DNA from: an uncultured virus (IMG/VR IMGVR_UViG_3300025009_000092)
Taxonomy: Duplodnaviria > Heunggongvirae > Uroviricota > Caudoviricetes
Length of the DNA stretch: 20,000 nt
IMG/VR virus record: IMGVR_UViG_3300025009_000092
Direction: 5' to 3' (one strand)
The notes beneath the pieces were generated by a model. It saw only the letters and a program-made list of their open reading frames with translations. It was not told the DNA's origin and made no database searches. Positions within the stretch are counted from its first letter, which is position 1, and every line of letters begins with the position of its first letter. The position numbers and the translations under genes are program-made. Below, piece by piece: positions 313-19,679 of the stretch.

Positions 313-1701
313 TCACCACGTCCCTACTCGTTTTGTATTAGTCAATTCATCAAAGGCATCGGCAGCCGCATCAACCTGATCCTTGAATTTGCCTTCCGGA
401 AAGTTTTCTGCCTCAAGCAAAAATGCTTCATTCCACGCGCCCTGTACCAGTTTTACATTGCCGGCCTGGGCTTGACTGGCCAATGGGGTGGCCCGGGTCT
501 CTTTCGAGCCTGTAACCGGCAATGTCTTTATTGTATAACCGGCCAATTCTTTGACGAAGGCCTTTGCCTGGCTCTTACCGGCCTGACCAGGATCTTGCGG
601 TAATCGAACCGGCACCAACTTACCATCCTGGCTGGCAATATTCTTGATGGAGTCGATTACTTTACTGGCATCAATTTGAAAACGAGTTGAATCTTCGATG
701 TAATAAACCCCGGCAACCTTGGCCATCCTGATCCCAGCGGTATATGCCGGCCCGCCATCTTTCTTCGCCTTTCGGTCTTCCGGATCTCGATCAGTCCCGG
801 CAAGATCCCATGCTCGAACTCTTTTTGCTCCGGCCGGCACTGCACTCACTATTTCAAAATCAGTCCGCTTGAAATAACTGCCGGCGGTTGGTCGTACATT
901 CCAATTCCCCTCAAGAAGCTGCGCCCGTTCAACCCGGGGGAGAGCGTTCAGTTTTGCAAGATAGGTCGGATCTTTCTGGAGGAGAATCTTATTATCATTG
1001 ATCGTTGAACGGATGAAGGTAAAGGAGAGCGGTTGAACGGGCGCATCAGCGGTACTGTATTTGTCGAGTAATTCTTGTTTTGAATCACCCCATATAACTT
1101 CATCGCCAAGAAGAATAAACCAGCGAATTACACCTGATCTACTGGCAATAACAAAACCATCTGGACCAATCCACCAGTCAATGAACTTCCGGACCCATGA
1201 ATCAGGATCAGGATTGCAGGTTCCTCGGATTCGGCCAGGGACACCAGACATGGACCGGTTCCGGGAAAGCATATACGAAAACTGCTTCCAGGTAAAGTGG
1301 CATATCTCATCAAAACCAATCAACGGGATCTGCGACCCTTGCCAGTCCAAGCGATTCTTCTCGTGCTCCATATGGGCAAAACTAATTGCCATCTTGGAGG
1401 GGAATCGGAAACACAATTCATTCTGATTCGGTTTGCCACCAATGGCCGGATACAACTCCGAGGCTTCATCCCACAACCCACCTTCTGAAGTAATCTGTTT
1501 GGTGGTCCGGCGGAAAATGACCGCACCGAATTTGGAATTGTTTACGTGATATAAGGGTTCCAGCAGAAGGGCGAATGATTTTCCCCCTCCGGCCGAACCA
1601 CCATAAAAAACAACATCTGCCCAACACGCAAGAAACTGAGTCTGCGGCCCCTCCTGGGGTTTTATCTCAATTACTTCTTGTTGAGGCATTGCTGCTGTCA
1701 T
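313..1701 (-). CDS. terL: Terminase large subunit
   Basis: PQEGPQ adenine-binding motif, Walker A GGSAGGGKS, Walker B IGFDE, TCNP coupling motif, C-terminal RNase H-like nuclease motifs RAWDLA and KDQVDA. Confidence 0.95.
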   Translation of the reverse strand: MTAAMPQQEVIEIKPQEGPQTQFLACWADVVFYGGSAGGGKSFALLLEPLYHVNNSKFGAVIFRRTTKQITSEGGLWDEASELYPAIGGKPNQNELCFRFPSKMAISFAHMEHEKNRLDWQGSQIPLIGFDEICHFTWKQFSYMLSRNRSMSGVPGRIRGTCNPDPDSWVRKFIDWWIGPDGFVIASRSGVIRWFILLGDEVIWGDSKQELLDKYSTADAPVQPLSFTFIRSTINDNKILLQKDPTYLAKLNALPRVERAQLLEGNWNVRPTAGSYFKRTDFEIVSAVPAGAKRVRAWDLAGTDRDPEDRKAKKDGGPAYTAGIRMAKVAGVYYIEDSTRFQIDASKVIDSIKNIASQDGKLVPVRLPQDPGQAGKSQAKAFVKELAGYTIKTLPVTGSKETRATPLASQAQAGNVKLVQGAWNEAFLLEAENFPEGKFKDQVDAAADAFDELTNTKRVGTW

Positions 1702-2507
1702 CCAACCATTTCCTTCTGGGGGAGTATGATAACCGCAGAACCAATTGGGGTGTCGCCGGTGGTAATATCAATATCCTGGCGGTCATTCCATTGTTCGGCC
1801 TTGGGAAGCGTTTTGGTACGATTCCACAAAAAGAATTTGGCGCTGGCAACATCGGCCGGCATATGTTTCTTTACCAGTTTATGAAGTATGATCTCCCGTA
1901 TAGGATAACCTTCCTCATCCCGGACTATATTACCATCGATATCCTTCTTGAATTCTTGGCGATATTCCTTCTCTTCCAGGTTGTAGCCACATGCCCGATG
2001 ATAAAGGCTTTTCGCCACGTTTGCATTAGCTACTTCACGCCCCTCTATAATGGCATAATTAAATTCGTCATCATCGTCCCGCCATTTATGTAACGTCTCA
2101 ACCTCAATCCCCAACAGCCTGGCCAGCTTCTCATCCGTACAACCCAACAAACAATACGACAAAGCCAATGCCGGATGGGTATCCTTCTTATATATGGGCT
2201 CGACCCCTGCGTGCATCTGTTCTTGTATTGCTTTTATCTGCCTTTGGAGTTCATTTATCTTGTTATATCTCCGGGCGCATTTCCTTTTGACGGTGGAATC
2301 ATTGGGATTTATCTTCAGGAGGGGAGTGGCCTTGATGGGGCCTTTGCCGGCGGGCTTATACTTGAGTGTTGGCTTCTGTATTGTGTTTTGGAGGCCTGGG
2401 GAGGATTGACGAACCATAATTTTGTACTTGTTGAGGTTGATATATATGGAGCGGGATTTCTGGGGTGGAAGATTTCTTGTTAATTTCCTTCCCCTTATAT
2501 TTACCAT
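1698..2507 (-). CDS. terS: Terminase small subunit (true start uncertain, possibly ATG at 2417)
   Basis: Directly upstream of and overlapping terL. HTH segment (LLGCTDEKLARLLGIEVETLHKW), then ANANVAKSLYHRACGY and PADVASAKFFLWNR...W.DR, typical of phage TerS. Confidence 0.85.
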   Translation of the reverse strand: MVNIRGRKLTRNLPPQKSRSIYINLNKYKIMVRQSSPGLQNTIQKPTLKYKPAGKGPIKATPLLKINPNDSTVKRKCARRYNKINELQRQIKAIQEQMHAGVEPIYKKDTHPALALSYCLLGCTDEKLARLLGIEVETLHKWRDDDDEFNYAIIEGREVANANVAKSLYHRACGYNLEEKEYRQEFKKDIDGNIVRDEEGYPIREIILHKLVKKHMPADVASAKFFLWNRTKTLPKAEQWNDRQDIDITTGDTPIGSAVIILPQKEMVG

Positions 2508-2641
2508 ATATATTAGATTTGCGAAGAATCAAAGGAGAATTAATTTTTTATATAATCTTAATAAATGCTTTATGATTATTGAAAAATAGATTATTATGGA
2601 GGTATAAGGCTTCAATATTATCGCTTAAAAGGAGAATAAAA

Positions 2642-3235
2642 ATGAAAAAGAGTTTAGTTGAATTACGAAGGGAATTAAAGCGCAAGTACAAATATGATCC
2701 AGAGACCGGAATATTTACAAGAAGAGACGGAAAGGTCCATGCCAATAGACTGAAAGAAATATATGCCGATAAACCCGAGCGATGGAAAGGGGCTGGTAAA
2801 TTAGTTTTAACCAAAAATGGCTTTGTAATTGACAACCAATATAATGGAGTCTATCTCAGCGGTAAAAGTTATAAAAACAATAGAGCGGCATTTTTATATA
2901 TGAAGGGATACCTTCCAGAAGGTATCGTTGATCATATTGATCAAGTAAAAACAAACGATCGCTGGGATAATCTCCGCGAAGTATCCCATTCATGCAATTT
3001 AAAAAATTCAAAACTCAGCAAAAAAAACAAAACTGGGGTGAAGGGGGTTTTCTATTCAGAAAAGGAAAAAAAATTCATTGTAAATATATCAGGGAATAAC
3101 AAAAACATCCGCCTCGGGAGTTTCAAAACCCTTTTGGAGGCTGCTGAGGCTCGGCATAAAGCAGAAATCGAATTTGGTTATCCAAATTGTGAAATGAATT
3201 CAACGGCTTTGCAATACATCAAAAAACACGAATAA
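2642..3235 (+). CDS. HNH homing endonuclease with C-terminal AP2-like domain
   Basis: AAGGAG RBS before ATG 2642; YDPETGIF, VDHIDQVKTNDRWDNLR...N (HNH), NKTGVKGV...RLGSFKTLLEAAEAR (AP2-like); AT-rich relative to its neighbours. Confidence 0.9.
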   Translation: MKKSLVELRRELKRKYKYDPETGIFTRRDGKVHANRLKEIYADKPERWKGAGKLVLTKNGFVIDNQYNGVYLSGKSYKNNRAAFLYMKGYLPEGIVDHIDQVKTNDRWDNLREVSHSCNLKNSKLSKKNKTGVKGVFYSEKEKKFIVNISGNNKNIRLGSFKTLLEAAEARHKAEIEFGYPNCEMNSTALQYIKKHE

Positions 3236-3259
3236 TTTATTAAGATTTTAGTTTTTTTC

Positions 3260-3288
3260 TTGACATCCTGTACAGGGCATATTATTAT
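3260..3288 (+). promoter_or_regulatory. Sigma70-type early promoter with a palindrome in the spacer
   Basis: TTGACA (3260-3265), 17-nt spacer, TATTAT (3283-3288), T-rich upstream tract; the spacer contains the perfect palindrome CCTGTACAGG (3267-3276). Confidence 0.8.
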
Positions 3289-3388
3289 AAGACATAAGAT
3301 AAAGATTGAGAGGGAAAGGGGGAGGTTAATCGAGAACCCGATAGGCGGGGATGGTCCAGTTGAGGAGCGCCCCACCAGGAAGCGGATA

Positions 3389-3442
3389 TAGTGTCTTTGA
3401 TTGTTTGATCAGACTGACGAGCCCATTCAGGGCGAAACACTA
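3389..3442 (+). ncRNA. Hammerhead ribozyme, type III
   Basis: Stem III TAGTGT/ACACTA; cleavage triplet GTC (cut after 3395); stem I TTTGATT-GTTT-GATCAGA; core CTGACGA (3414-3420); stem II GCCC-ATTCA-GGGC; GAAA (3434-3437). Confidence 0.92.
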
Positions 3443-3458
3443 AATGAGGAGATTGGCC

Positions 3459-3716
3459 ATGAAGAAATGTTTATCCGATGCATTGGCTATCGACGAGTTG
3501 CGAGTAACACTGGAAAACATATCACATGATGATGATAGGGATATGGAAGATTATAGTAGGGAAGAACTGGTAGCGGAGGCTAATTATGTTCTTTCTTGCT
3601 ATTTTGAAGGTGGGCATATGTCAAATGATGAATTGAATTCAGATGATGGCGAAATCAGATCAAGCGCTAAAAAACAGGTAAAAATGTTACAAAATTATAT
3701 TAAAAAATATAGTTAA
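3459..3716 (+). CDS. Hypothetical acidic early protein (85 aa)
   Basis: GAGGAG RBS at 3446-3451 and ATG at 3459; first ORF after the early promoter and hammerhead. Confidence 0.75.
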   Translation: MKKCLSDALAIDELRVTLENISHDDDRDMEDYSREELVAEANYVLSCYFEGGHMSNDELNSDDGEIRSSAKKQVKMLQNYIKKYS

Positions 3717-3764
3717 ATAACAACCCCCAACCGAGCCCGGCGGAATCCGGCATTGGAGGATGGT

Positions 3765-3935
3765 ATGAAATTGGAAATAGTCAAATATGGGGACGAAAGA
3801 AATATCATCGTTAAATCCTGGAAAGAGGTAAAAGAACATTTACAAAGAACAAATCTCCCTCACTGCTTTGTTCTTTCTGAGATCAAAGGCCATAACTGCT
3901 CATTAACCAAAACTGGAAGATTACAAAGAGATTAA
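3765..3935 (+). CDS. Hypothetical early protein (56 aa)
   Basis: GGAGGA RBS at 3755-3760 and ATG at 3765. Confidence 0.65.
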   Translation: MKLEIVKYGDERNIIVKSWKEVKEHLQRTNLPHCFVLSEIKGHNCSLTKTGRLQRD

Positions 3936-4004
3936 CCACTTCGAAACCGGCTCCGGCCGGTCATCCAGGGTTCGGCTCCTGGGTCTGATGAGATAGCCGG
4001 TTAA
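3932..4004 (+). ncRNA. Hammerhead ribozyme, type II, with loop I/3'-tail pseudoknot
   Basis: GAAA 3943-3946; stem III ACCGGC-TCCG-GCCGGT; GTC triplet (cut after 3962); stem I ATCCAGG/CCTGGGT; core CTGATGA 3985-3991; open stem II TC/GA extended by TTAACC/GGTTAA; loop I CGGCT (3973-3977) is complementary to AGCCG (3995-3999). Confidence 0.92.
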
Positions 4005-4024
4005 CCAAATCAAAGGAGAATGTC

Positions 4025-4255
4025 ATGAATATCGAACGGGTATATCTTTGCAACGAAGCATTCGGGACTGTAAAAAAGCAGGTTCATGCTTGGATTGATG
4101 GTCAATTCTATCGGATTTTTGGCGAGGGAGATAAAAGGGAAATAAGAAAAGTCATCTCCGCAACAAAACAGCCAAAATTAACCGGAAAGAAATTGATCAA
4201 TAAAATTTTAGCCGCAGTCGATAGCAAACCCCTTCCTCCTGTTGCATGGTTTTGA
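4025..4255 (+). CDS. Hypothetical basic early protein (76 aa)
   Basis: AAGGAG RBS immediately after the second hammerhead; ATG at 4025. Confidence 0.75.
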   Translation: MNIERVYLCNEAFGTVKKQVHAWIDGQFYRIFGEGDKREIRKVISATKQPKLTGKKLINKILAAVDSKPLPPVAWF

Positions 4256-4276
4256 ACTTTAAAATAAGGACTCCCC

Positions 4277-4705
4277 ATGACCAGAATCAATATAGTCCCA
4301 CCCGCCGAGCTTTGCGACCAACAGCTTATAGCTGAATGGCGCGAGCTAACCAGAATCCCCAATGGTATTGTTGCCGGGAAGTATGTAATTGATTTGGAGC
4401 AGATCCCCAAACAATACACCGTCAGGACTGAAGATAATCCGGATGGCGGCAAAGGGCATATGAAATTCTTCTTCAATAAGTTAAAATTCCTGTATCGCCG
4501 GTATGAAGCAATCAGGGATGAGCTTGCCCAGCGGGGAATGCCGAGGCGGAGTATGTGGCCTGTTGGTGAATTTATGGTCTGGCCCACGATTGATAATATT
4601 CTTTGGAACGATTACGAGCCGACCCCGGAAGCAATGACCCTGAACAGAAAACGGATTGCGGAGAAGTTCCCCAAGAAACCAAGATATGCAAGGGAAAGGT
4701 TATGA
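4277..4705 (+). CDS. denV: Pyrimidine-dimer DNA glycosylase / T4 endonuclease V family
   Basis: MTRINIVPPAELCDQQLIAEWRELTRI matches the EndoV N-terminus (catalytic Thr2 and Glu23 region); G.GHMKFFFNKLKFL..RY..I..EL..RG. Confidence 0.93.
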   Translation: MTRINIVPPAELCDQQLIAEWRELTRIPNGIVAGKYVIDLEQIPKQYTVRTEDNPDGGKGHMKFFFNKLKFLYRRYEAIRDELAQRGMPRRSMWPVGEFMVWPTIDNILWNDYEPTPEAMTLNRKRIAEKFPKKPRYARERL

Positions 4706-4914
4706 AGAAATATCCACCGGCCTGGAACTTAACGGCAATCGAACTTGAACTAGCCATTCTGCGTGGGCTTCCGGCCACAGACCTAGTTGAGCATTGGGAG
4801 CGGCTGCAGAAAATCCAAGCCGATCTAGCCCATTTGTTTAAATCAGTTACTTATCAACGGGCCGTAAATTTAGCGGCTCAATCCGATATTATTGAGGAGG
4901 AAAATCATGAGTAA
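4702..4914 (+). CDS. Hypothetical protein (70 aa)
   Basis: ATGA overlap with the denV stop and a GAAAGG RBS; start reassigned from 4603 to 4702. Confidence 0.65.
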   Translation: MKKYPPAWNLTAIELELAILRGLPATDLVEHWERLQKIQADLAHLFKSVTYQRAVNLAAQSDIIEEENHE

Positions 4915-5050
4915 TCGAGCAGGTTTTTGGTTTATGGTTGGATTCATTCTTGTTATAATAATTTCCTTCATCACCTATGCCCCGGAAATTATGGGAGTCA
5001 AACAGAAACTCGAAAACAAGGCGGTGGGATATGGTCAGCTCAATTATTAA
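4907..5050 (+). CDS. Small membrane protein (47 aa, MSNRAGFWFMVGFILVIIISFITYAPEI...), not in the ORF track
   Basis: GAGGAGG RBS, ATG 4907, TAA 5048-5050; one hydrophobic segment. Confidence 0.7.
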   Translation: MSNRAGFWFMVGFILVIIISFITYAPEIMGVKQKLENKAVGYGQLNY

Positions 5051-5150
5051 GATCGTTGTCGCCATCCTGTTTCTGATTCTTTTTGGAATAGCCGGGGAAA
5101 TGGATTATCAGGACCATGTTTCCCGGCAAGAACCAACAACCCAGTATTAG
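5031..5150 (+). CDS. Small membrane protein (39 aa, MVSSIIKIVVAILFLILFGIAGEMDYQDH...), not in the ORF track
   Basis: ATG 5031 to TAG 5150 fills the gap before the sigma-factor RBS; hydrophobic stretch followed by G.MDYQD. Confidence 0.6.
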   Translation: MVSSIIKIVVAILFLILFGIAGEMDYQDHVSRQEPTTQY

Positions 5151-5159
5151 GAGATTGAA

Positions 5160-5675
5160 ATGACCCCCAATCACACCAACCAGCTCGTTGAAAAACATAT
5201 TTCCCAAGTAAACAAACTCGCCTGGTCCTTTGCCAAAACAACTGGTCATGAATTTGATGACCTCAAGTCGGAAGGAACTATTGCAATGCTGAGGGCAATC
5301 AAGAAATTCAATCCAGATCATGGTTGCGAATTATCCACCTTAATTCATACCACCTGCCGGAATGCCATGGTTCAGTATTTGAAAACCCAGGGGAAGAAGT
5401 TCCCGGCAACGAATGAGGAAGTTGATGTAGCGGATCATAGGCCGAGTGGTCACCAGCGATATGAATTTCTTGAATCCCTCTCTTCCCTTGGGGCCGAGGC
5501 AAAACAGGTATTGCGGATCATTTTCGAGTCACCAAAGGAAATGACCAATATCACAGCGGGAAATTCTGCCGGCAATATCCGGAAGACCATTGAACGGACC
5601 ATGCGGGATATGGGATTCAAGGGCCGGGGGATCGAGCGGGCGTTTAATCAAATCAGATCAACTTTTCAGAATTAA
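5160..5675 (+). CDS. Phage-encoded sigma70-family sigma factor (region 2 recognisable)
   Basis: FDDLKSEGTIAMLRAIKKFNPDHGCELSTLIHTTCRNAM resembles the region 2 consensus (DL.QEG.IGL..A..KFDP..G..FSTYA...IR); AGGAG RBS. Confidence 0.82.
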   Translation: MTPNHTNQLVEKHISQVNKLAWSFAKTTGHEFDDLKSEGTIAMLRAIKKFNPDHGCELSTLIHTTCRNAMVQYLKTQGKKFPATNEEVDVADHRPSGHQRYEFLESLSSLGAEAKQVLRIIFESPKEMTNITAGNSAGNIRKTIERTMRDMGFKGRGIERAFNQIRSTFQN

Positions 5676-5684
5676 GGTGGGGAT

Positions 5685-5891
5685 ATGGCAAAGCAAACCA
5701 AGGAAGAAAAGGTCATTGAATTTTTAAAATCAAGGGGACTTGTCGAGATCCTGCCTTCCAAATCCAGGAAATATCGACAATTTAAAAAGGCGGACGATTC
5801 GGTATATTCCTATTGGGTTGGCAGAAAAGGTGCCTGCAGAAAAGGAAAAGTTTCATCCCAGTCAATCCCCATAACCTTGACCTTATTGTAA
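5685..5891 (+). CDS. Hypothetical basic protein (68 aa)
   Basis: AAGGTGG RBS; its stop overlaps the helicase start. Confidence 0.7.
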   Translation: MAKQTKEEKVIEFLKSRGLVEILPSKSRKYRQFKKADDSVYSYWVGRKGACRKGKVSSQSIPITLTLL

Positions 5892-9480: not shown

Positions 9481-9494
9481 ATGGAGATTTGCGG

Positions 9495-10409
9495 ATGGAA
9501 GTTTTTGATCAAGATAAACCGAAAAGAAAAGTAAAGGGTATTTGGATTCCTATTGAAATTTGGGAGTGTAAAATCTTAACTCTGCAGCAAAAAGTATTCC
9601 TCGCCGAAATAGATAGTCTTGATCATGGGAATGGTTGTTATGCTAAGAATAAATGGTTCTCTAAACAATTTGGAATTTCTCAAGATCGAGCATCAAGGGT
9701 AATTGGAAGTTTGATTGATCTTGGATTGGTTTCTTCAAAACTTATTTATAAAACCAATTCAAAAGAAGTCGAAAAAAGATTGTTAAAAATGATTGCCCCC
9801 CTCCCGGTAGAAATACCTATAGGCCCCGGTGAAAGTACCGATACCCCCCCCGGTAAAAACACCGAGGATATAATATATAAAAAAGATAATATAGATAATA
9901 AAAGAATATATGGCAATGTTCCTGCGGAACAATTGCCGAATGATTCTAATGATAGAAGTCTTAAAGCATGGAGTGAAGTAATTTTAAATAACCCCTCCAA
10001 AATTAATTTAAATAAAACCCTCCAAAGAAAAGCAACAAAAGTTCTTTCCAGACTTAATCAACTTGGTTCCAAACCAAGAGGGTTCCGGCCAGTCCCTGAA
10101 AATTTGAAATATATAATATCCCGCCTGAAGGATGGATTTTCCGTACAGGATTGTTTCCAAGTTCTTGAAACAAAAATCCATGATCCTTGGTTTGAAGAAA
10201 ATCCAAAACTTTATAATCCAGAAACATTATTCCGCCCCAAAAACTTCGAAAAATACCTGAATGAAAAAGTACAGGACTATGAAAAGAAACAACCAGGGGT
10301 AGCCAATGGCTCAGGCATCTCCGGCAATATTGATTATTCACTCAGGCCAGGAAGAGACAAAAAAATAAAAGTCGACAAAACCAATTGGGGGAAATACGAT
10401 AATGAATGA
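9495..10409 (+). CDS. Phage replication initiator (N-terminal HTH; conserved phage replisome-organiser C-terminus)
   Basis: KGIWIP.EIW...L...K.FLAEIDSL....GCYA.N.WFS..FGIS...SRVI..L...G (wHTH); RLKDGFS..D...V...K...W......NPETLF..NFEKYLN; internal iterons; followed by a loader ATPase. Start set at ATG 9495 after GGAG. Confidence 0.88.
   Translation: MEVFDQDKPKRKVKGIWIPIEIWECKILTLQQKVFLAEIDSLDHGNGCYAKNKWFSKQFGISQDRASRVIGSLIDLGLVSSKLIYKTNSKEVEKRLLKMIAPLPVEIPIGPGESTDTPPGKNTEDIIYKKDNIDNKRIYGNVPAEQLPNDSNDRSLKAWSEVILNNPSKINLNKTLQRKATKVLSRLNQLGSKPRGFRPVPENLKYIISRLKDGFSVQDCFQVLETKIHDPWFEENPKLYNPETLFRPKNFEKYLNEKVQDYEKKQPGVANGSGISGNIDYSLRPGRDKKIKVDKTNWGKYDNE
9803..9910 (+). repeat. Putative replication origin: three iterons plus an AT-rich tract inside the initiator gene
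   Basis: CCCGGTAGAAATACC (9803-9817), CCCGGTGAAAGTACC (9825-9839), CCCGGTAAAAACACC (9849-9863), spaced 22 and 24 bp, each with a GGT-N6-ACC dyad, then an A/T-rich stretch. Confidence 0.75.
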
Positions 10410-11380: not shown

Positions 11381-11466
11381 CATAAGTAGCAAGATACTAG
11401 AATATAATCTTCTGAGGAGTACTCAAAGACCCCATACCTGTAAAGGATGGGGTTGAGGCAGTGAAT

Positions 11467-11674
11467 GAGCATGGTGGCGGAATGGCAGACGCTAAACTAT
11501 GGGGTCATGCGGGATCGGAGACAGAGCCTTGCTGTAAGACAAGTCAGGTAAACACTCGGGAAGCAAGGGCGGTCCAAAAACTTGATGAAAATATTAACCA
11601 ATGTCCCACTGATGTGGTGCTGACTAACATCAAGCATATGCAAGCTGCAGGTTCAAGTCCTGCCCATGCTCGCA
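11467..11674 (+). ncRNA. tRNA-like RNA with a ~150-nt structured insert replacing the anticodon/variable arms
   Basis: Acceptor stem (G)AGCATGG/CCATGCT(C), T8-G9, class II-like D arm GCGGAATGGCAGACGC, perfect T arm GCAGG-TTCAAGT-CCTGC; no canonical anticodon arm and no encoded CCA. Confidence 0.8.
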
Positions 11675-11697
11675 ATTATTTATTTTGAGGACGAGTA

Positions 11698-11842: not shown

Positions 11843-11870
11843 CCCCATACCTTCCAAGGTTGGGGCTTTT
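11842..11870 (+). terminator. Probable intrinsic terminator closing the ncRNA block
   Basis: GCCCCA-T-ACCT-TCCA-AGGT-TGGGGC followed by TTTT. Confidence 0.6.
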
Positions 11871-14202: not shown

Positions 14203-15735
14203 ATGAGTTCCCAATTCATCGAACGCCGCATTGCCATCGGCCTCATTACCAACGACCAATACCTGCGGGAAATAGCCCCCGTATTTAATGCCGATCTCCT
14301 CAAGGATGAAGCGGCAAAAAAGATTGCCTCCTGGTGCATCCGCTATTTCAATAAGCACGGAAAAGCACCCCTGGAAGATATCGGGATCATCTTCGAATCA
14401 TATACCAGGAGGGGGAAACTCAATCAGGAAGAATCGGAGGATATTGGTAGCATCCTTGACGACCTCAGTGATGAATATCAAACCCAGGCCGAGAACAACC
14501 CGGAGGTCCTGATTGACGAAACTTTCGCATACTTCGATGAAAACAGGCTAGTTCGCCTGGCGGATGATATCAAGGCCGAGGCCCAGCGGGGGAACCTGTT
14601 AGAGGCCAATGTACTGCTTGCTACTAATAAGCAAATTCAACGGGCGGTAAATATAAACCATGACTTCTTCGCCGATGATATTACCAGGACGCAAAAAATA
14701 TTTGAAGACATCCAGGAGCCAATTGTCGAATACCCTGGTAAGCTCGGGCAACTCTGGAACCGGCATTTCGTTCGTGGAGGTTTTGTTGGATTACTCGGCC
14801 CTGAAAAAACTGGAAAAACATGGTGGCTGGCAGACATTGGATTCCAGGCCCAACGAACCGGTAAAAAAGTAGCCTTCTTTGCGGCCGGGGATATGAACCG
14901 GGAGGAAATGGAACTCCGGAAATATATCTATATGGCCAGGAAATCCAACGAACTTGAATATTGCGGGCAATTGATGATCCCGGTGGTTGATTGTTTCTGG
15001 AATCAGAATGGTCAATGTCCGGCTGGTTGCGGTGAATCGCCAATCCGGGGAGATAAACCACCGGCCTTCAAGGATCTCCAACAAGTTTATAGCGATGCTT
15101 TTGAACAATATGGAAGTGACCATACCCCATGCACCAAATGCCAGGGCAAAAAAGAATTCCTAGGTGCCCCATGGTTCAAGCTCCGAGATAAAATAGTCCC
15201 CCTGAACTGGAAAGAGGCATATAATATTGAGCGAAAATTCCAAAAACGATTTCGTGGGGCTGGTTGGAACTTTGCCGATTATCCGGCTTATACCCTCAGT
15301 CCGAAAATGATTGATAATCAATTGGCCATCTGGCACGAAGGCGGCTTTACAGCCGATGTTGTGTTGATTGATTATCCGGATATCATGGCCCCAGACCTGG
15401 AAGACCAGCGAATGGATTTCCGGCAGAAAGAGAATATGAAGTGGTTGAAGATCCGGGCGTTGGCCCATAAGTGGCATTGCCTCGTTGTTTGCCCTACACA
15501 AGCCGATGGAGCCAGTTATGGCAAGGACTGGCTGGATCTCTCCAACTACAGCGAGGATAAGCGAAAGTACAGCCATACAACGGCCTTCTTTGGTCTCAAT
15601 CAAACCGATGGGGAAGCCGAGTTGGGGCTATTCAGGATTAATCAATTAATTGTTCGAAGTGGAAAGCGAGGAAAGAAGTATGCAACTATTTGCCAGCGGC
15701 TCGAAATGGGTCGGCCATTTCTAGGATCATATTAA
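14203..15735 (+). CDS. DnaB-like (SF4) replicative helicase with a Cys-rich insert
   Basis: Helical N-terminal domain (IERRIAIGLITNDQYL), Walker A GPEKTGKT, VLIDYPD (Walker B), VVCPTQ, late Arg motif IVRSG. Confidence 0.8.
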   Translation: MSSQFIERRIAIGLITNDQYLREIAPVFNADLLKDEAAKKIASWCIRYFNKHGKAPLEDIGIIFESYTRRGKLNQEESEDIGSILDDLSDEYQTQAENNPEVLIDETFAYFDENRLVRLADDIKAEAQRGNLLEANVLLATNKQIQRAVNINHDFFADDITRTQKIFEDIQEPIVEYPGKLGQLWNRHFVRGGFVGLLGPEKTGKTWWLADIGFQAQRTGKKVAFFAAGDMNREEMELRKYIYMARKSNELEYCGQLMIPVVDCFWNQNGQCPAGCGESPIRGDKPPAFKDLQQVYSDAFEQYGSDHTPCTKCQGKKEFLGAPWFKLRDKIVPLNWKEAYNIERKFQKRFRGAGWNFADYPAYTLSPKMIDNQLAIWHEGGFTADVVLIDYPDIMAPDLEDQRMDFRQKENMKWLKIRALAHKWHCLVVCPTQADGASYGKDWLDLSNYSEDKRKYSHTTAFFGLNQTDGEAELGLFRINQLIVRSGKRGKKYATICQRLEMGRPFLGSY

Positions 15736-15746
15736 AAGGAGAGGAT

Positions 15747-16121
15747 ATGTCAATCACAGTAACCAAGAAGTTTAGTTTTTGTTATGCTCACCACTTGCCG
15801 GAGTATGATGGAGACTGCTCCCGTGTTCATGGCCACAATAGTGCCGTTGAGGTCGAATTCACCAATGAGTATGGTCAGCTGCCAAGACCATATCCGGGCA
15901 TGGTAGTCGACTTCAAGGATATCAAGAAAATTGTCGGGCCGATTATTGATCAGCTTGATCATCGGTATTTGAATGATATTCTTGACCCCTTTAATCCCAC
16001 CGCCGAGACCATTGCAAATTGGATTGCCGGCCGGATAATGGAGACCCCACTTGGTCCGGGATTGATCAGGGTGCAGGTTTCGGAAACTGACGATTCTTTT
16101 GCCACCTGGAGAAAAGCATGA
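15747..16121 (+). CDS. queD: 6-carboxy-5,6,7,8-tetrahydropterin synthase
   Basis: FCYAHHL, CSRVHGHN, MVVDF, LDHRYLN, PTAE, VSET; AAGGAG RBS with ATG 15747. Confidence 0.95.
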   Translation: MSITVTKKFSFCYAHHLPEYDGDCSRVHGHNSAVEVEFTNEYGQLPRPYPGMVVDFKDIKKIVGPIIDQLDHRYLNDILDPFNPTAETIANWIAGRIMETPLGPGLIRVQVSETDDSFATWRKA

Positions 16122-16774
16122 AAACGAAGATTAATATCATGTCAATTTTCTTTTCAATCTCCGGAGAGGTCAATATCTGGCCGCAAGGAGCCCCGACCAT
16201 ATTCATTCGTTTTGCTGGTTGCAATTTGGCTTGCCACTATTGCGATACCAAACAATCAATCAATGCTGCCGGTACCCAGATGACTGTCGAAGAAATAGTC
16301 GAGCAGGTCAAATCTTTTGATTGTCAGCGGGTTTTGATCACCGGCGGGGAACCCCTATTACAAAAGAATGGTCTACAGGCATTAATCAGAGAACTTGATA
16401 TCCAGGGATATGTGACTAGTGTTGAAACAAATGGATCTCTTCCCCTGGATATCCTTCCTGAGCATCCGGATTGCTGGGTGGTCGATATCAAGATGCCGGG
16501 GAGTGGATATTTTGATTCTATGATCCTGCCGGAAAAACACCTGGAAGATGCCGAAGTCTGGGATAATTTGATTTTCAAATTCCCAATTGAGAATGAACGA
16601 GACTTCCAAACCGCGGCCGATATTATAAAGGATCTGAGCGAACACGCGGCCGGATTCGCTCTTTCCCCGATTTCCCCCTTGACTGCAATTGAATTATGGG
16701 GATGGATGGTCAGAGCCGGATTGACTCATTGTATCCTAAATACCCAGATTCATAAGTTTTTAAAATTAGAATAG
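16118..16774 (+). CDS. queE: 7-carboxy-7-deazaguanine synthase (radical SAM)
   Basis: IFFSISGE, FIRFAGCNLACHYCDT (CX3CX2C), ITGGEP, VETNG, QIHK. Confidence 0.95.
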   Translation: MKTKINIMSIFFSISGEVNIWPQGAPTIFIRFAGCNLACHYCDTKQSINAAGTQMTVEEIVEQVKSFDCQRVLITGGEPLLQKNGLQALIRELDIQGYVTSVETNGSLPLDILPEHPDCWVVDIKMPGSGYFDSMILPEKHLEDAEVWDNLIFKFPIENERDFQTAADIIKDLSEHAAGFALSPISPLTAIELWGWMVRAGLTHCILNTQIHKFLKLE

Positions 16775-16802
16775 ACTGCCGGCAGAATTATTTTGCCGGA
16801 AT

Positions 16803-16853
16803 GTAAAATATTTCCGTAGAAAATCATTCGAAAACAGTATAATAGGATAGAAG
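16803..16853 (+). promoter_or_regulatory. Repeated phage promoter-like motif, copy 2
   Basis: GTAAAATA...AGAAAA...GAAAACAGTATAATAGGATAGAAG, matching 11088-11137; preceded by the hairpin CCGGCAGAA/TTTTGCCGG (16779-16799). Confidence 0.75.
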
Positions 16854-16915
16854 ATAAAAATGGTCAGTGTGATCATTTGCCAGGATTTCCAAACCAAGAA
16901 TAAAGGAGAATTGCC

Positions 16916-17719
16916 ATGAGTGAACCCAAACGCCCCGAATTGATTGCTGCCGCAAAGGAATTGAACACCCTGCTGGACCCCGATCCCAAGATCAAGACGG
17001 TCGGCGTAAAGACTGATGAATTGACCAAGGCTATTGTGGTAGCGGCCGGCCTGCTCGATAAGGGGGATTCCCTGACGACCGAAACCCACGCCGTCCTCTG
17101 CGCCCTGGAAGTTGAGTTACCGGAAGGCCTGGTCATTGCCGCTGCCGATGCGGATGATGAAAATGGCGATAATGCCCAGGAAGAGAAAAAGCCCGAGCCG
17201 GCAATTGAGCGGGAAGACCTGGTTGCCCTGATCGAAGAAATGAACAAGGTCATGGATCTGGACCCGGCAATCGAAGCCAGTGAGAAATCAAGCATCGACG
17301 GTCTCAAGAAACTGATCCATGATAATTGCTACGATAAGGGCGAGTGCCAGGTCTTTGATACCGACAAATTCAGCCCCGAAGCATGGGAAACCTTGACGGT
17401 CCTGGGTGTCCGGCCGGTAGTTACCAAGAAGGCCAAGGATAAGCCGGCAAAAGCCGAGAAGGCAGAAAAGCCCGCCAAGGCCGGAAAAGCGGAGAAGGCT
17501 GAGAAGCCGGCAAAGGCCAAGAAAGAGAAAAAGGAAAAATCCCCCGGCACCCCTTCCAATAAGCGGATTGTTTATGACCTCTTTGCGGCCGGCGAGAAGG
17601 ATCAGGCAAAAATGCTGAAAGCCACGAATGATGCTGTATCCGCCACGACCATCAAGATTTGGATCTCCATGTGGGCCAAGGGTAAAAACCTGCCGGCAGG
17701 TATCAAAGCCGCCGAATGA
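16916..17719 (+). CDS. Hypothetical protein: duplicated acidic domain, Lys/Ala-rich (histone H1-like) repeats, small C-terminal domain
   Basis: AAAGGAG RBS; KPAKAEKAEKPAKAGKAEKAEKPAKAKK; two similar N-terminal units. Confidence 0.8.
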   Translation: MSEPKRPELIAAAKELNTLLDPDPKIKTVGVKTDELTKAIVVAAGLLDKGDSLTTETHAVLCALEVELPEGLVIAAADADDENGDNAQEEKKPEPAIEREDLVALIEEMNKVMDLDPAIEASEKSSIDGLKKLIHDNCYDKGECQVFDTDKFSPEAWETLTVLGVRPVVTKKAKDKPAKAEKAEKPAKAGKAEKAEKPAKAKKEKKEKSPGTPSNKRIVYDLFAAGEKDQAKMLKATNDAVSATTIKIWISMWAKGKNLPAGIKAAE

Positions 17720-18123
17720 AACGAATAGCCTTCATAGGTTGTTCAAAGAGGAAGAAAACCTCCCCCTGCCAGGCAAAGGACCTGTATCAGGGGGAGTTGT
17801 TTAAAAAATCTCTTCGTTATTGCCAACAAGAAAAATTCGACGAAATATATATTCTGTCTGCCAAATATGGATTGGTCTTTTTACAAGATATCATCCAGCC
17901 GTACGAAAAAACCCTGAATACATTTACAGAAGACGAAAAGAAAAATTGGTCCGATAAAGTAAAACAACAAATTTTAGAAAAGAATATTTCCGGGGAATTT
18001 TGGTTCTTTTGCGGAAGCAATTACCATAAACATTTTGAAGGTGAAAAACCTTTATTTGGTTTATCCCTTGGATATCAATTAAACTGGTTCAATCAAAAAT
18101 TAAAAAAGGGGTTCAATCTATGA
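17716..18123 (+). CDS. DUF6884-like protein
   Basis: IGCSKRK.....AKDLY.G.LF....Y......YILSAKYGL.....I.PYE.TL; AT-rich; coupled to both neighbours. Confidence 0.75.
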   Translation: MKRIAFIGCSKRKKTSPCQAKDLYQGELFKKSLRYCQQEKFDEIYILSAKYGLVFLQDIIQPYEKTLNTFTEDEKKNWSDKVKQQILEKNISGEFWFFCGSNYHKHFEGEKPLFGLSLGYQLNWFNQKLKKGFNL

Positions 18124-18782
18124 AAATCGTCTTATCGCTATCCGGCGGGATGGATTCCGCCGCCCTGCTCGGGACCCTGCTCGGGACTGGCCATGAAGTT
18201 TTTGCCGTCTCTTTCTTCTATGGTTCCAAGCACAATCAGTATGAATTGGAAGCCGCCCGGAAGCTGACCGAGCATTATGGTATAAAGCGGCAGTCAATGG
18301 ATATCTCCGGGATCTTCGCCGGGTTCAAGTCGGCCCTGCTGAAAGAGGATTCCCGGTCGATCCCGGAAGGTCATTATGAAGACCGTACTATGGTACAAAC
18401 GGTCGTACCTGGGCGGAATATGATCTTCTCGGCTATCCTTGCGGGGTTGGCCCAATCATTCGAGTACGACGCGGTAGCGCTCGGTATCCATGCAGGGGAT
18501 CATACCATCTATCCGGATTGCCGGCCAGTCTTCAAAGAAAGCATGGATCTGGCCATTAAAACCGCTTCTGAGTATTCGGTTTCCTTGTATGCCCCTTTCC
18601 TGGGAATGAGCAAGGGAGATATCGTCAAGGTCGGGATGGAGCACAAAGTTCCTTTTAAATTGACCCGCACCTGTTATAAGGATCAGTCTTTGTCTTGTGG
18701 AAAATGTGGATCATGTACCGAAAGATTGGAAGCATTCGCCGAGAATGGCCTGGTTGATCCGATTCAGTATGCGGTAAAGTAA
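18120..18782 (+). CDS. queC: 7-cyano-7-deazaguanine (preQ0) synthase
   Basis: SLSGGMDS PP-loop, VPGRNMIF, YPDCR, TRTCY...CGKCGSC.ER zinc site. Confidence 0.96.
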   Translation: MKIVLSLSGGMDSAALLGTLLGTGHEVFAVSFFYGSKHNQYELEAARKLTEHYGIKRQSMDISGIFAGFKSALLKEDSRSIPEGHYEDRTMVQTVVPGRNMIFSAILAGLAQSFEYDAVALGIHAGDHTIYPDCRPVFKESMDLAIKTASEYSVSLYAPFLGMSKGDIVKVGMEHKVPFKLTRTCYKDQSLSCGKCGSCTERLEAFAENGLVDPIQYAVK

Positions 18783-18794
18783 ATAGGAGGCTCC

Positions 18795-19679
18795 GTGAAA
18801 AGAATTATTACAAATGAAGAAGTAGAACTTGCTTGCCTGCCAATAATAAAATCAATCCCAAAAGATGAACTAGGGTTTGGTGGGCCGAGTTTTTATGGTG
18901 TGCCGCGCGGAGGAATTGCCCCTGCATATATGCTGGCCGGATTAACCGATGGTTCCGTAGCGGATCATCCTAAAAAAGCCGACTATATTATTGATGACCT
19001 GATTGATTCCGGCAGTACCCGAGATCGATACGCCAAACTCTATCCCGACACTCCATTCATTACTCTTTTTGAAAAAACCGATCCGATGGAATGGCTGGTC
19101 TTCCCCTGGGAAGTTACCGAGCAGGGCCATGACACCTCTGCGGAAGATATCCCATCTCGTTTTTTAGAATTTATCGGAGAGGATTTAAATCGGGATGGAT
19201 TAAAAGAAACTCCAAAACGAATGATTAAAGCCTGGAAAGAAATTTTCAGCGGATATGAACAAAATCCATCTGATGTTATAAAAACTTTCGAATCAGATGG
19301 ATATGATCAAATAGTCCTTTTACGGGATATTGAATTATATTCCATGTGCGAACATCACGCATTACCATTTGTAGGCCGGGCACATGTCGCATATATTCCT
19401 GGAGGCAAGGTTATCGGTATTTCAAAGCTCGCAAGACTGATTGATATCTTTTCCAAAAGATTACAAATTCAAGAAAGAATAGGAGATCAGGTGACCTCAA
19501 TTCTCATGAATGAATTGAATGCCCAGGGAGCCGCCTGCATAATTGAAGCAGATCATTTCTGTATCAGAATGAGGGGCGTCGGAAAGCAGCATTCTACTAT
19601 GGTAACCTCTTCAATGAAAGGCGTATTTTTAACTAAGCCTGAAGCAAGATCCGAGTTATTGAGTTTGATCCGGTCATGA
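18795..19679 (+). CDS. folE: Fusion of a type I (Gpt-like) phosphoribosyltransferase domain and GTP cyclohydrolase I
   Basis: N-terminus: YGVPRGG, IIDDLIDSGST (PRPP loop), WLVFPWE. C-terminus: RDGLKETPKR, SMCEHHALPF.G, GISKLAR, LQIQER, HFCIRMRG. AGGAGG RBS with GTG start. Confidence 0.93.
   Translation: MKRIITNEEVELACLPIIKSIPKDELGFGGPSFYGVPRGGIAPAYMLAGLTDGSVADHPKKADYIIDDLIDSGSTRDRYAKLYPDTPFITLFEKTDPMEWLVFPWEVTEQGHDTSAEDIPSRFLEFIGEDLNRDGLKETPKRMIKAWKEIFSGYEQNPSDVIKTFESDGYDQIVLLRDIELYSMCEHHALPFVGRAHVAYIPGGKVIGISKLARLIDIFSKRLQIQERIGDQVTSILMNELNAQGAACIIEADHFCIRMRGVGKQHSTMVTSSMKGVFLTKPEARSELLSLIRS

Follow-up and report, generated by a model that had tools for sequence, protein, structure and literature searches.

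Hammerhead cleavage leaves a 2',3'-cyclic phosphate on the 5' product and a 5'-hydroxyl on the 3' product, and the engineered element RiboJ derives from a type III hammerhead of a satellite RNA. In prophages, multiple hammerheads of mixed type flank genes, single or in short blocks, that vary in identity; these arrays cleave in vitro and in vivo, and it has been suggested that they divide long phage transcripts into mRNAs of gene length (Perreault et al., 2011; PMC3088659). The same account places a hammerhead of the halovirus HF1/HF2 directly before the opening gene of the early operon; the mapped 5' end there lies no more than 3 nt from the cleavage site (Perreault et al., 2011). In Escherichia coli, RiboJ increases protein 2- to 10-fold and transcript about twofold (Clifton et al., 2018; PMC6206723). 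The roles of bacterial and phage hammerheads have been called 'largely elusive' (Weinberg et al., 2019; PMC6765202), a view that is also taken in the available parts of the cyPhyRNA-seq paper (PMC8782182) and that a preliminary description of the present locus, made from the letters of the DNA, had shared in calling the role largely unresolved. A literature search at the level of abstracts found no paper that gives phage hammerheads a function, and Camara-Wilpert (2023; PMC10651486) mentions hammerheads solely as an engineering tool.

The window analysed here is a 20,000-nucleotide stretch of the genome of an uncultured tailed phage, and it contains a predicted type III hammerhead in the leader of its first early gene (Table 1). 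The kind of element has been known in phages since 2011, and this locus adds no new kind. Like the prophage clusters, as far as the available text of Perreault et al. (2011) describes them, it has hammerheads of mixed type close together that bracket small genes of changing identity, with a pseudoknot in the type II member; unlike those clusters, the phage ribozyme is welded here to a conserved promoter-leader and to a Shine-Dalgarno sequence and ATG, with the whole unit moving between phages. Neither a welded promoter-leader-ribozyme-Shine-Dalgarno module nor its exchange between phages was found described in the literature searched.

The HF1/HF2 ribozyme, again as described in that source, shares the position immediately ahead of the first start codon in an early polycistronic transcript, but it has a core insertion and a salt dependence, whereas the ribozyme in the window has a consensus core and a cleavage site that is predicted only. 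RiboJ, in the account of Clifton et al. (2018), is likewise a hammerhead between a promoter and a ribosome site that removes a promoter-derived leader and leaves a structured 5'-hydroxyl end (both predicted here), with the effect that expression of the downstream gene is raised and made independent of context. RiboJ was, however, engineered and then provided with an added hairpin, whereas the natural module keeps a conserved leader that would later be discarded. The seed members of Rfam family RF00008 (viroid, satellite and eukaryotic type III hammerheads) have the same core, helix topology and cleavage triplet; those process multimers in circular RNA replicons or repeats, whereas the present element is encoded by DNA, lies in the leader of a phage mRNA and has a sub-threshold score.

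Table 1. Positions of genes and predicted RNA and regulatory features in the window (numbering from its first letter).
Feature	Position	Strand	Remarks
Terminase large and small subunit genes	313-2507	-	
HNH endonuclease gene	2579-3235 (ORF)	+	Between terminase small subunit gene and early promoter
Predicted early promoter (TTGACA, 17 nt, TATTAT)	3260-3288	+	Sigma-70-like, 11/12 matches, best in 2400-5200
Leader detached by predicted cleavage, about 100 nt, ending in GUC	3295-3395	+	Alignments and fold
Predicted type III hammerhead ribozyme	3389-3442	+	Predicted cleavage between C3395 and U3396; full-length RF00008 match, core equal to consensus
Shine-Dalgarno GAGGAG (3446-3451), 7-nt spacer, ATG (3459-3461)	3446-3461	+	3' part of conserved module; near-identical in nine viral contigs
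ORF A, 85 aa	3459-3716	+	Acidic; belongs to no Pfam or PHROG family; confidently modelled with five helices
Intercistronic junction: C-rich tract, short GC hairpin, GGAGG, ATG of ORF B	3713-3770	+	Conserved, 58 nt
ORF B, 56 aa	3765-3935	+	No family
Predicted type II hammerhead ribozyme	3939-4002	+	RF02276, 44.5 bits versus gathering score of 37; predicted cleavage after C3962
AATCAAAGGAGA ribosome site and ATG (4025) of ORF 4025-4255, 76 aa	4008-4027	+	Conserved

The complete core, three stems, GUC triplet and type III topology proposed in the preliminary description are reproduced base for base by direct reading, by the alignment to RF00008 and by an independent minimum-energy fold. Stem III, read directly, pairs U3389-U3394 with A3437-A3442 in 6 bp that include the A15.1-U16.1 pair (A3437-U3394), and the GUC at 3393-3395 places the predicted cut after C3395, as had been stated. 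Stem I joins 3396-3401 to 3408-3413 (6 bp, or 7 with an optional U-G pair), the core segment CUGACGA occupies 3414-3420 with position 7 as its one free position, and stem II (GCCC/GGGC) joins 3421-3424 to 3430-3433, closed by G10.1-C11.1 (G3421-C3433). The GAAA that follows (3434-3437) supplies the core GAA, G12-A13-A14, at 3434-3436. The consensus elements are present: C3-U4-G5-A6-N7-G8-A9 with G12-A13-A14, and an N-U-H triplet with the A15.1-U16.1 and G10.1-C11.1 pairs. The covariance-model alignment and the fold agree on three helices (stem I 6-7, stem II 4 and stem III 6 bp), with loops closing stems I and II and stem III open, and the element ends 3 nt ahead of the GAGGAG of the first early gene, again as first described.

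The Rfam search that the preliminary description had proposed as a check aligned all 54 positions of RF00008 to 3388-3443 (cmscan) with 41.7 bits, corresponding to an E value of 1.8 × 10−7 when 1 kb is searched and of 3.5 × 10−6 for the whole window against all 4227 families. This score lies under the RF00008 gathering score of 48.5, so that default Rfam annotation would not report the element, which would account for an element of this sort being left without annotation. At E ≤ 0.5, the scan of the whole 20 kb produced just two matches, the type III and the type II hammerhead. In isolation, 3386-3446 (61 nt) has the exact three-way junction as its minimum-energy fold (−14.7 kcal/mol, z = −2.05), and this fold is retained within a leader context of 175 nt. 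Five distinct sequences, compared over 16 helix pairs, have 94.9% of cells paired and no compensatory change, the family being too close to tell. Contacts between loops are the basis of fast cleavage at cellular Mg2+ (Perreault et al., 2011); between loops I and II no tertiary contact of 3 bp or more is visible here, a 2-bp UG/CA complement being all that appears by eye, and the loop changes in relatives do not covary.

A second hammerhead, of type II, begins 3 nt past the stop codon of ORF B and is separated from the type III element by 496 nt. Of the Rfam matches in the window it alone exceeds its curated threshold, and it combines that score with a consensus core, a GUC at 3960-3962 and a pseudoknot, read from the sequence, between loop I (CGGCU, 3973-3977) and the 3' tail (AGCCG, 3995-3999). 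Such a pairing of loop I with the 3' tail is known for type II hammerheads (Perreault et al., 2011). The preliminary description had overlooked this partner, as well as the portable promoter-leader-ribozyme-Shine-Dalgarno module and the close positional relatives without a ribozyme that are described below.

The pattern formed by the 3' part of the type III hammerhead, the Shine-Dalgarno sequence and the ATG recurs in nine viral contigs representing six versions, one of the nine being a record identical to the window over the compared stretch. With 100% identity over 1888-5752, the nearest record, G001, is not independent; blastn of 2500-5200 against the phage collection gave no match. Five versions keep the −35 hexamer, the 17-nt spacing and the −10 hexamer of the promoter with a spacer of varying sequence, and the hairpin after the leader block differs in sequence among versions and is absent from L144. 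From the hammerhead through the Shine-Dalgarno sequence and ATG the mean column identity is 94%, and the first ORFs that follow are dissimilar in all six versions (85, 46, 100, 69, 76 and 70 aa). As judged from these alignments, the putative ribozyme is the 3' part of a conserved portable unit consisting of early promoter, leader of about 100 nt, hammerhead, Shine-Dalgarno sequence and ATG.

An alternative is that the resemblance to a hammerhead is fortuitous and the sequence no ribozyme. The score below the curated threshold and the lack of covariation speak for this, but the E value on the window, the correctness of every core base, the identity maintained beside unrelated genes and the nearby type II element with its above-threshold score are all against chance, which can be given next to no weight. 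The type III element is almost certainly a true hammerhead motif. It probably also cleaves in vivo. Of 18 consensus hammerheads, 14 were active in vitro (Perreault et al., 2011).

The type II hammerhead accompanies the module in four of the six versions, 448-757 nt downstream, with scores of 44.6-46.9 bits and 98-100% identity to that of the window; the RNAs that would be released measure 567, 828, 631 and 519 nt. No type II hammerhead occurs within 1.5 kb in the remaining two versions. When 2500-5499 was compared with the module loci by blastn, the islands of homology within the variable region 3200-4260 were the promoter-to-ATG module, the 58-nt intercistronic junction and the type II hammerhead, and the ORFs between these islands differ among loci. 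Outside that region some downstream genes are common to the module loci, and L147 also shares the upstream HNH region. Conserved copies of the junction are present in L147 (two), L149, L150 and L151, and in L012 the hairpin survives two changes on both sides; tied to a ribosome site, this hairpin may act in processing or stabilization. The ribosome-site motif downstream of the type II hammerhead is found again in L147, L150 and L151, before different genes. Contigs from three other studies (runs X5, X6 and X12) cover only 3259/3283/3307-3452/3462 and 3933/3936-4019/4027 and are unlike the window beyond the modules, on the sides that they reach; being independent contigs of low depth, they are weak evidence of portability.

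Two of the six versions (L148/L151 and L144) carry changes expected to impair the ribozyme, L144 having two mismatches at the base of stem I and a score of 26.4 bits. In L148 and in L151, the hammerhead of which lies at 1456-1511, the core A6 is replaced by G (CTGGCGA) and a U-G pair of stem I by C-G, with the type II hammerhead still downstream.

Relatives defined by position or by gene content do without the ribozyme altogether. In the syntenic but diverged record G002 (66.6 kb), the terminase genes are followed by 184 nt of intergenic DNA, a different ORF of 87 aa and then a homologue of ORF 4025, with no hammerhead in the entire 66.6 kb and no HNH gene between the terminase genes and the ORF 4025 homologue. 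Neither hammerhead type is present in the relatives collected through ORF 4025 (L005-L008, records G002-G005). Nine of nine metagenome loci with ORF A homologues (40-67% identity) gave no ribozyme match at E ≤ 0.1, and the homologue with 67% identity is preceded by a promoter and then a short plain leader. The ribozyme is therefore bound neither to its gene nor to its genome position, and the predicted hammerhead is, by these comparisons, dispensable at this position.

The position of the element can also be set against that of other phage hammerheads. A pattern for hammerheads sharing this stem II has more than 123 matches in the viral collection, of which 84, at 80 loci, were examined and classed with a crude parser of our own as 26 of type III, 50 of type I and eight unparsed; the pattern biases this sample, to which the window locus and L073 belong. 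The end of the hammerhead lies within 30 nt of a start codon preceded by a Shine-Dalgarno sequence and opening an ORF of at least 40 aa in 18 of 26 distinct type III examples and in 29 of 45 distinct type I examples, compared with 384 of 3950 positions chosen at random from these loci. Within this biased sample, a place just ahead of a ribosome site is shown to be the rule for the predicted hammerheads and no peculiarity of the window.

These observations allow the conserved junctions to be read chiefly as recombination linkers, short tracts of common sequence between genes where cassettes pass from one related phage to another, with hitch-hiking hammerheads whose cleavage is incidental or decaying. 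Modules that are 95-100% identical between contigs with unrelated flanking genes, a ribozyme-free junction (3713-3770) conserved in the same pattern, damaged hammerheads in two of the six versions and positional relatives with no ribozyme all speak for this reading. On the other hand, a perfect core is kept in four of the six versions, and hammerheads of unrelated sequence are enriched about sevenfold just before ribosome sites, which a pure patch of homology does not predict. Linkers as the main explanation are accordingly considered improbable; the sub-threshold score, the lack of covariation or of a convincing loop contact, the damaged versions, the dispensability and a Shine-Dalgarno accessibility that cleavage leaves unchanged (see below) keep the idea alive.

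The predicted promoter, situated between the HNH gene and the downstream plus-strand block, puts the start of transcription near 3295, so that the leader removed by cleavage would be about 100 nt long; the same figure had been given in the preliminary description, and it corresponds to the distance from this start to C3395. The leader comprises a conserved block (3310-3344) followed by the variable hairpin (3344-3376). Directly downstream of the early promoter, the block reads GGGAAAGG, 2 nt, GAGGTTAATCGAGA, 2 nt and CC. In L144 and L154 there is an additional upstream helix with a compensatory change (CUCAG/CUGAG versus CACAG/CUGUG).

The leader itself could be the product for the sake of which the cut is made, a small RNA with a defined 3' end and with 3310-3344 as its functional part. 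The block is kept in four diverged versions, it contains a helix in which one position is occupied by G-C, C-G and U-A pairs, and in L154 it runs straight into the ribosome site with no hammerhead between them, so that it has a role of its own. L154 is at the same time an argument against release by cleavage, since the block evidently needs no ribozyme there; moreover, the helix is just 3 bp long, the block has no Rfam match and the 3' end of the leader would be unprotected once stem III melts. Release of a functional leader RNA is thus regarded as quite unlikely.

An effect of cleavage on access to the ribosome site was considered and rejected. The predicted probability that the Shine-Dalgarno sequence is unpaired is 0.63 in the uncleaved and 0.64 in the cleaved RNA, which gives no sign that cutting unmasks translation. 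An 8-bp helix between leader and spacer, seen in the minimum-energy fold, was also dismissed as a mask of this site: it is not kept in L144, and L154 is without the spacer.

The preferred reading is that the cuts define mRNA ends. RNA transcribed from the early promoter would fold into the three-way junction during or just after transcription and cut itself between C3395 and U3396, and the leader would depart with a 2',3'-cyclic phosphate. The first early message would then start at the 5'-hydroxyl of U3396, already paired in the stem I hairpin and 50 nt from the ribosome site. The type II hammerhead would cut after C3962 and free the first two small ORFs; the two predicted cuts together yield a 567-nt RNA (3396-3962) with ORFs A and B. 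In folds of the cleaved RNAs, nucleotide 1 of both 3' products lies inside a hairpin, which is stem I of the respective ribozyme, and the 567-nt RNA is predicted to have a hairpin flush with its 5' end and, 3 nt short of its 3' end, the stem III hairpin of the type II ribozyme. The next cistron, starting at 4025, would likewise begin with a hairpin-capped 5'-hydroxyl end right before its own conserved ribosome site. Ends of this kind would be expected to withstand end-dependent ribonucleases. Flush 5' hairpins and 5'-hydroxyl ends slow the decay that depends on RNase E or RppH. Interchangeable early genes could in this manner gain defined, nuclease-resistant mRNA ends and a constant 5' UTR whatever the sequence upstream, and the fixed 50-nt 5' UTR would make translation independent of upstream context.

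The arrangement of a ribozyme insulator is present, with a predicted ribozyme between promoter and ribosome site and one module before six different genes. End definition or insulation has at best an even chance of being the selected role. The chain as a whole, from a genuine type III hammerhead through its cleavage to end definition for interchangeable early genes, is judged marginally probable. A wider and distinctly more doubtful proposal is that the type III element, the type II element and the intercistronic junction form a kit of portable junction modules, each with its own ribosome site, that act as natural insulators: the transcript would be cut at every junction into hairpin-capped pieces, and phages would swap their first-expressed genes by recombination within the modules while mRNA stability and translation stay constant. 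The genes swapped would plausibly be those for host takeover or counter-defence. If this proposal is correct, the junction modules are a natural counterpart of RiboJ and an explanation for phage hammerheads that precede ribosome sites.

The locus offers a clean test case, since each of two ribosome sites has a hammerhead at a fixed distance, one a consensus type III and the other a type II. In some natural variants the core (A6 to G) or stem I is damaged, and the same leader and the same first gene also occur ribozyme-free; these variants are ready-made controls for the effect of cleavage on mRNA stability or translation.

A different fate for the 567-nt RNA would be its joining into a circular mRNA, by a ligase of the RtcB type or by reversal of the ribozyme reaction. 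A 5'-hydroxyl and a 2',3'-cyclic phosphate are the ends that RtcB uses, the pairing of ribozymes recurs in four of the six versions, and spliced or circular products have been raised as a possibility for paired prophage hammerheads (Perreault et al., 2011). The ends of this RNA are, however, no more complementary than expected (−22.2 kcal/mol versus −21.4 ± 4.0 kcal/mol after shuffling, with 85 of 200 shuffles as good), the two ribozymes differ in type and are not repeats, and no ligase gene was found among the 30 ORFs scanned; circularization is very unlikely. A circular RNA of the viroid-like or retrozyme type was rejected because the ribozymes are of unlike types and the end complementarity is no better than in the shuffled controls.

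ORF A has homologues in two protein clusters, found by a protein-database search, and in the nine metagenome loci mentioned above. Its AlphaFold2 model, built from a nine-sequence alignment, has five helices and a pLDDT of 96.8. Compared by Foldseek with the PDB and BFVD libraries, the fold had no match at E ≤ 0.001, and the sequence matched nothing among the sequences of solved structures at E ≤ 1 and gave no usable Atlas feature match. A function as an anti-restriction DNA mimic, suggested by the acidity of the protein and by the association with ardA noted in the available text of Perreault et al. (2011), found no support.

The designation of ORF A as the first early gene, made in the preliminary description, fits the gene map: the terminase genes are on the opposite strand, the strong promoter precedes ORF A, and genes for repair, a sigma factor, helicases, primase and nucleotide metabolism lie downstream. 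The long plus-strand block after the HNH gene encodes a pyrimidine-dimer glycosylase, a sigma factor, an SNF2 helicase, a primase, a replication initiator and loader, ThyX, a DnaB-like helicase and a QueD/QueE/QueC/GTP cyclohydrolase I set. With regard to the host, the hammerhead pattern is absent from the collection of genome contigs, and relatives of the terminase (29-65% identity) are scattered over unrelated phyla and archaea, the five best such loci being without a ribozyme.

Several further features of the window were noted. The likely start of the HNH endonuclease gene is the ATG at 2643, behind AAAGGAGAA; the gene is missing at the corresponding place in L150, L151 and G002 and looks like the insertion of a free-standing homing endonuclease. 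The 12-mer AATCAAAGGAGA has two exact copies in the window, at 4008-4019 and at 2527-2538; the latter lies in the terminase-HNH intergenic region, has no suitably spaced start codon and could be a scar of recombination. Two tandem 25-nt repeats that are 80% alike (9976-10025) lie within the replication-initiator gene (9489-10409) and could be origin iterons, as in lambda O. The genes for QueD, QueE, DUF6884, QueC and GTP cyclohydrolase I occupy 15690-19679, together with a 267-aa ORF without a family (16916-17719), and a que/GTP cyclohydrolase I set usually points to phage DNA modified with 7-deazaguanine. A 23-nt palindromic element (CCCCAT...ATGGGG) occurs in two copies, at 11430-11452 and 11843-11865, on either side of a small ORF (11461-11688).
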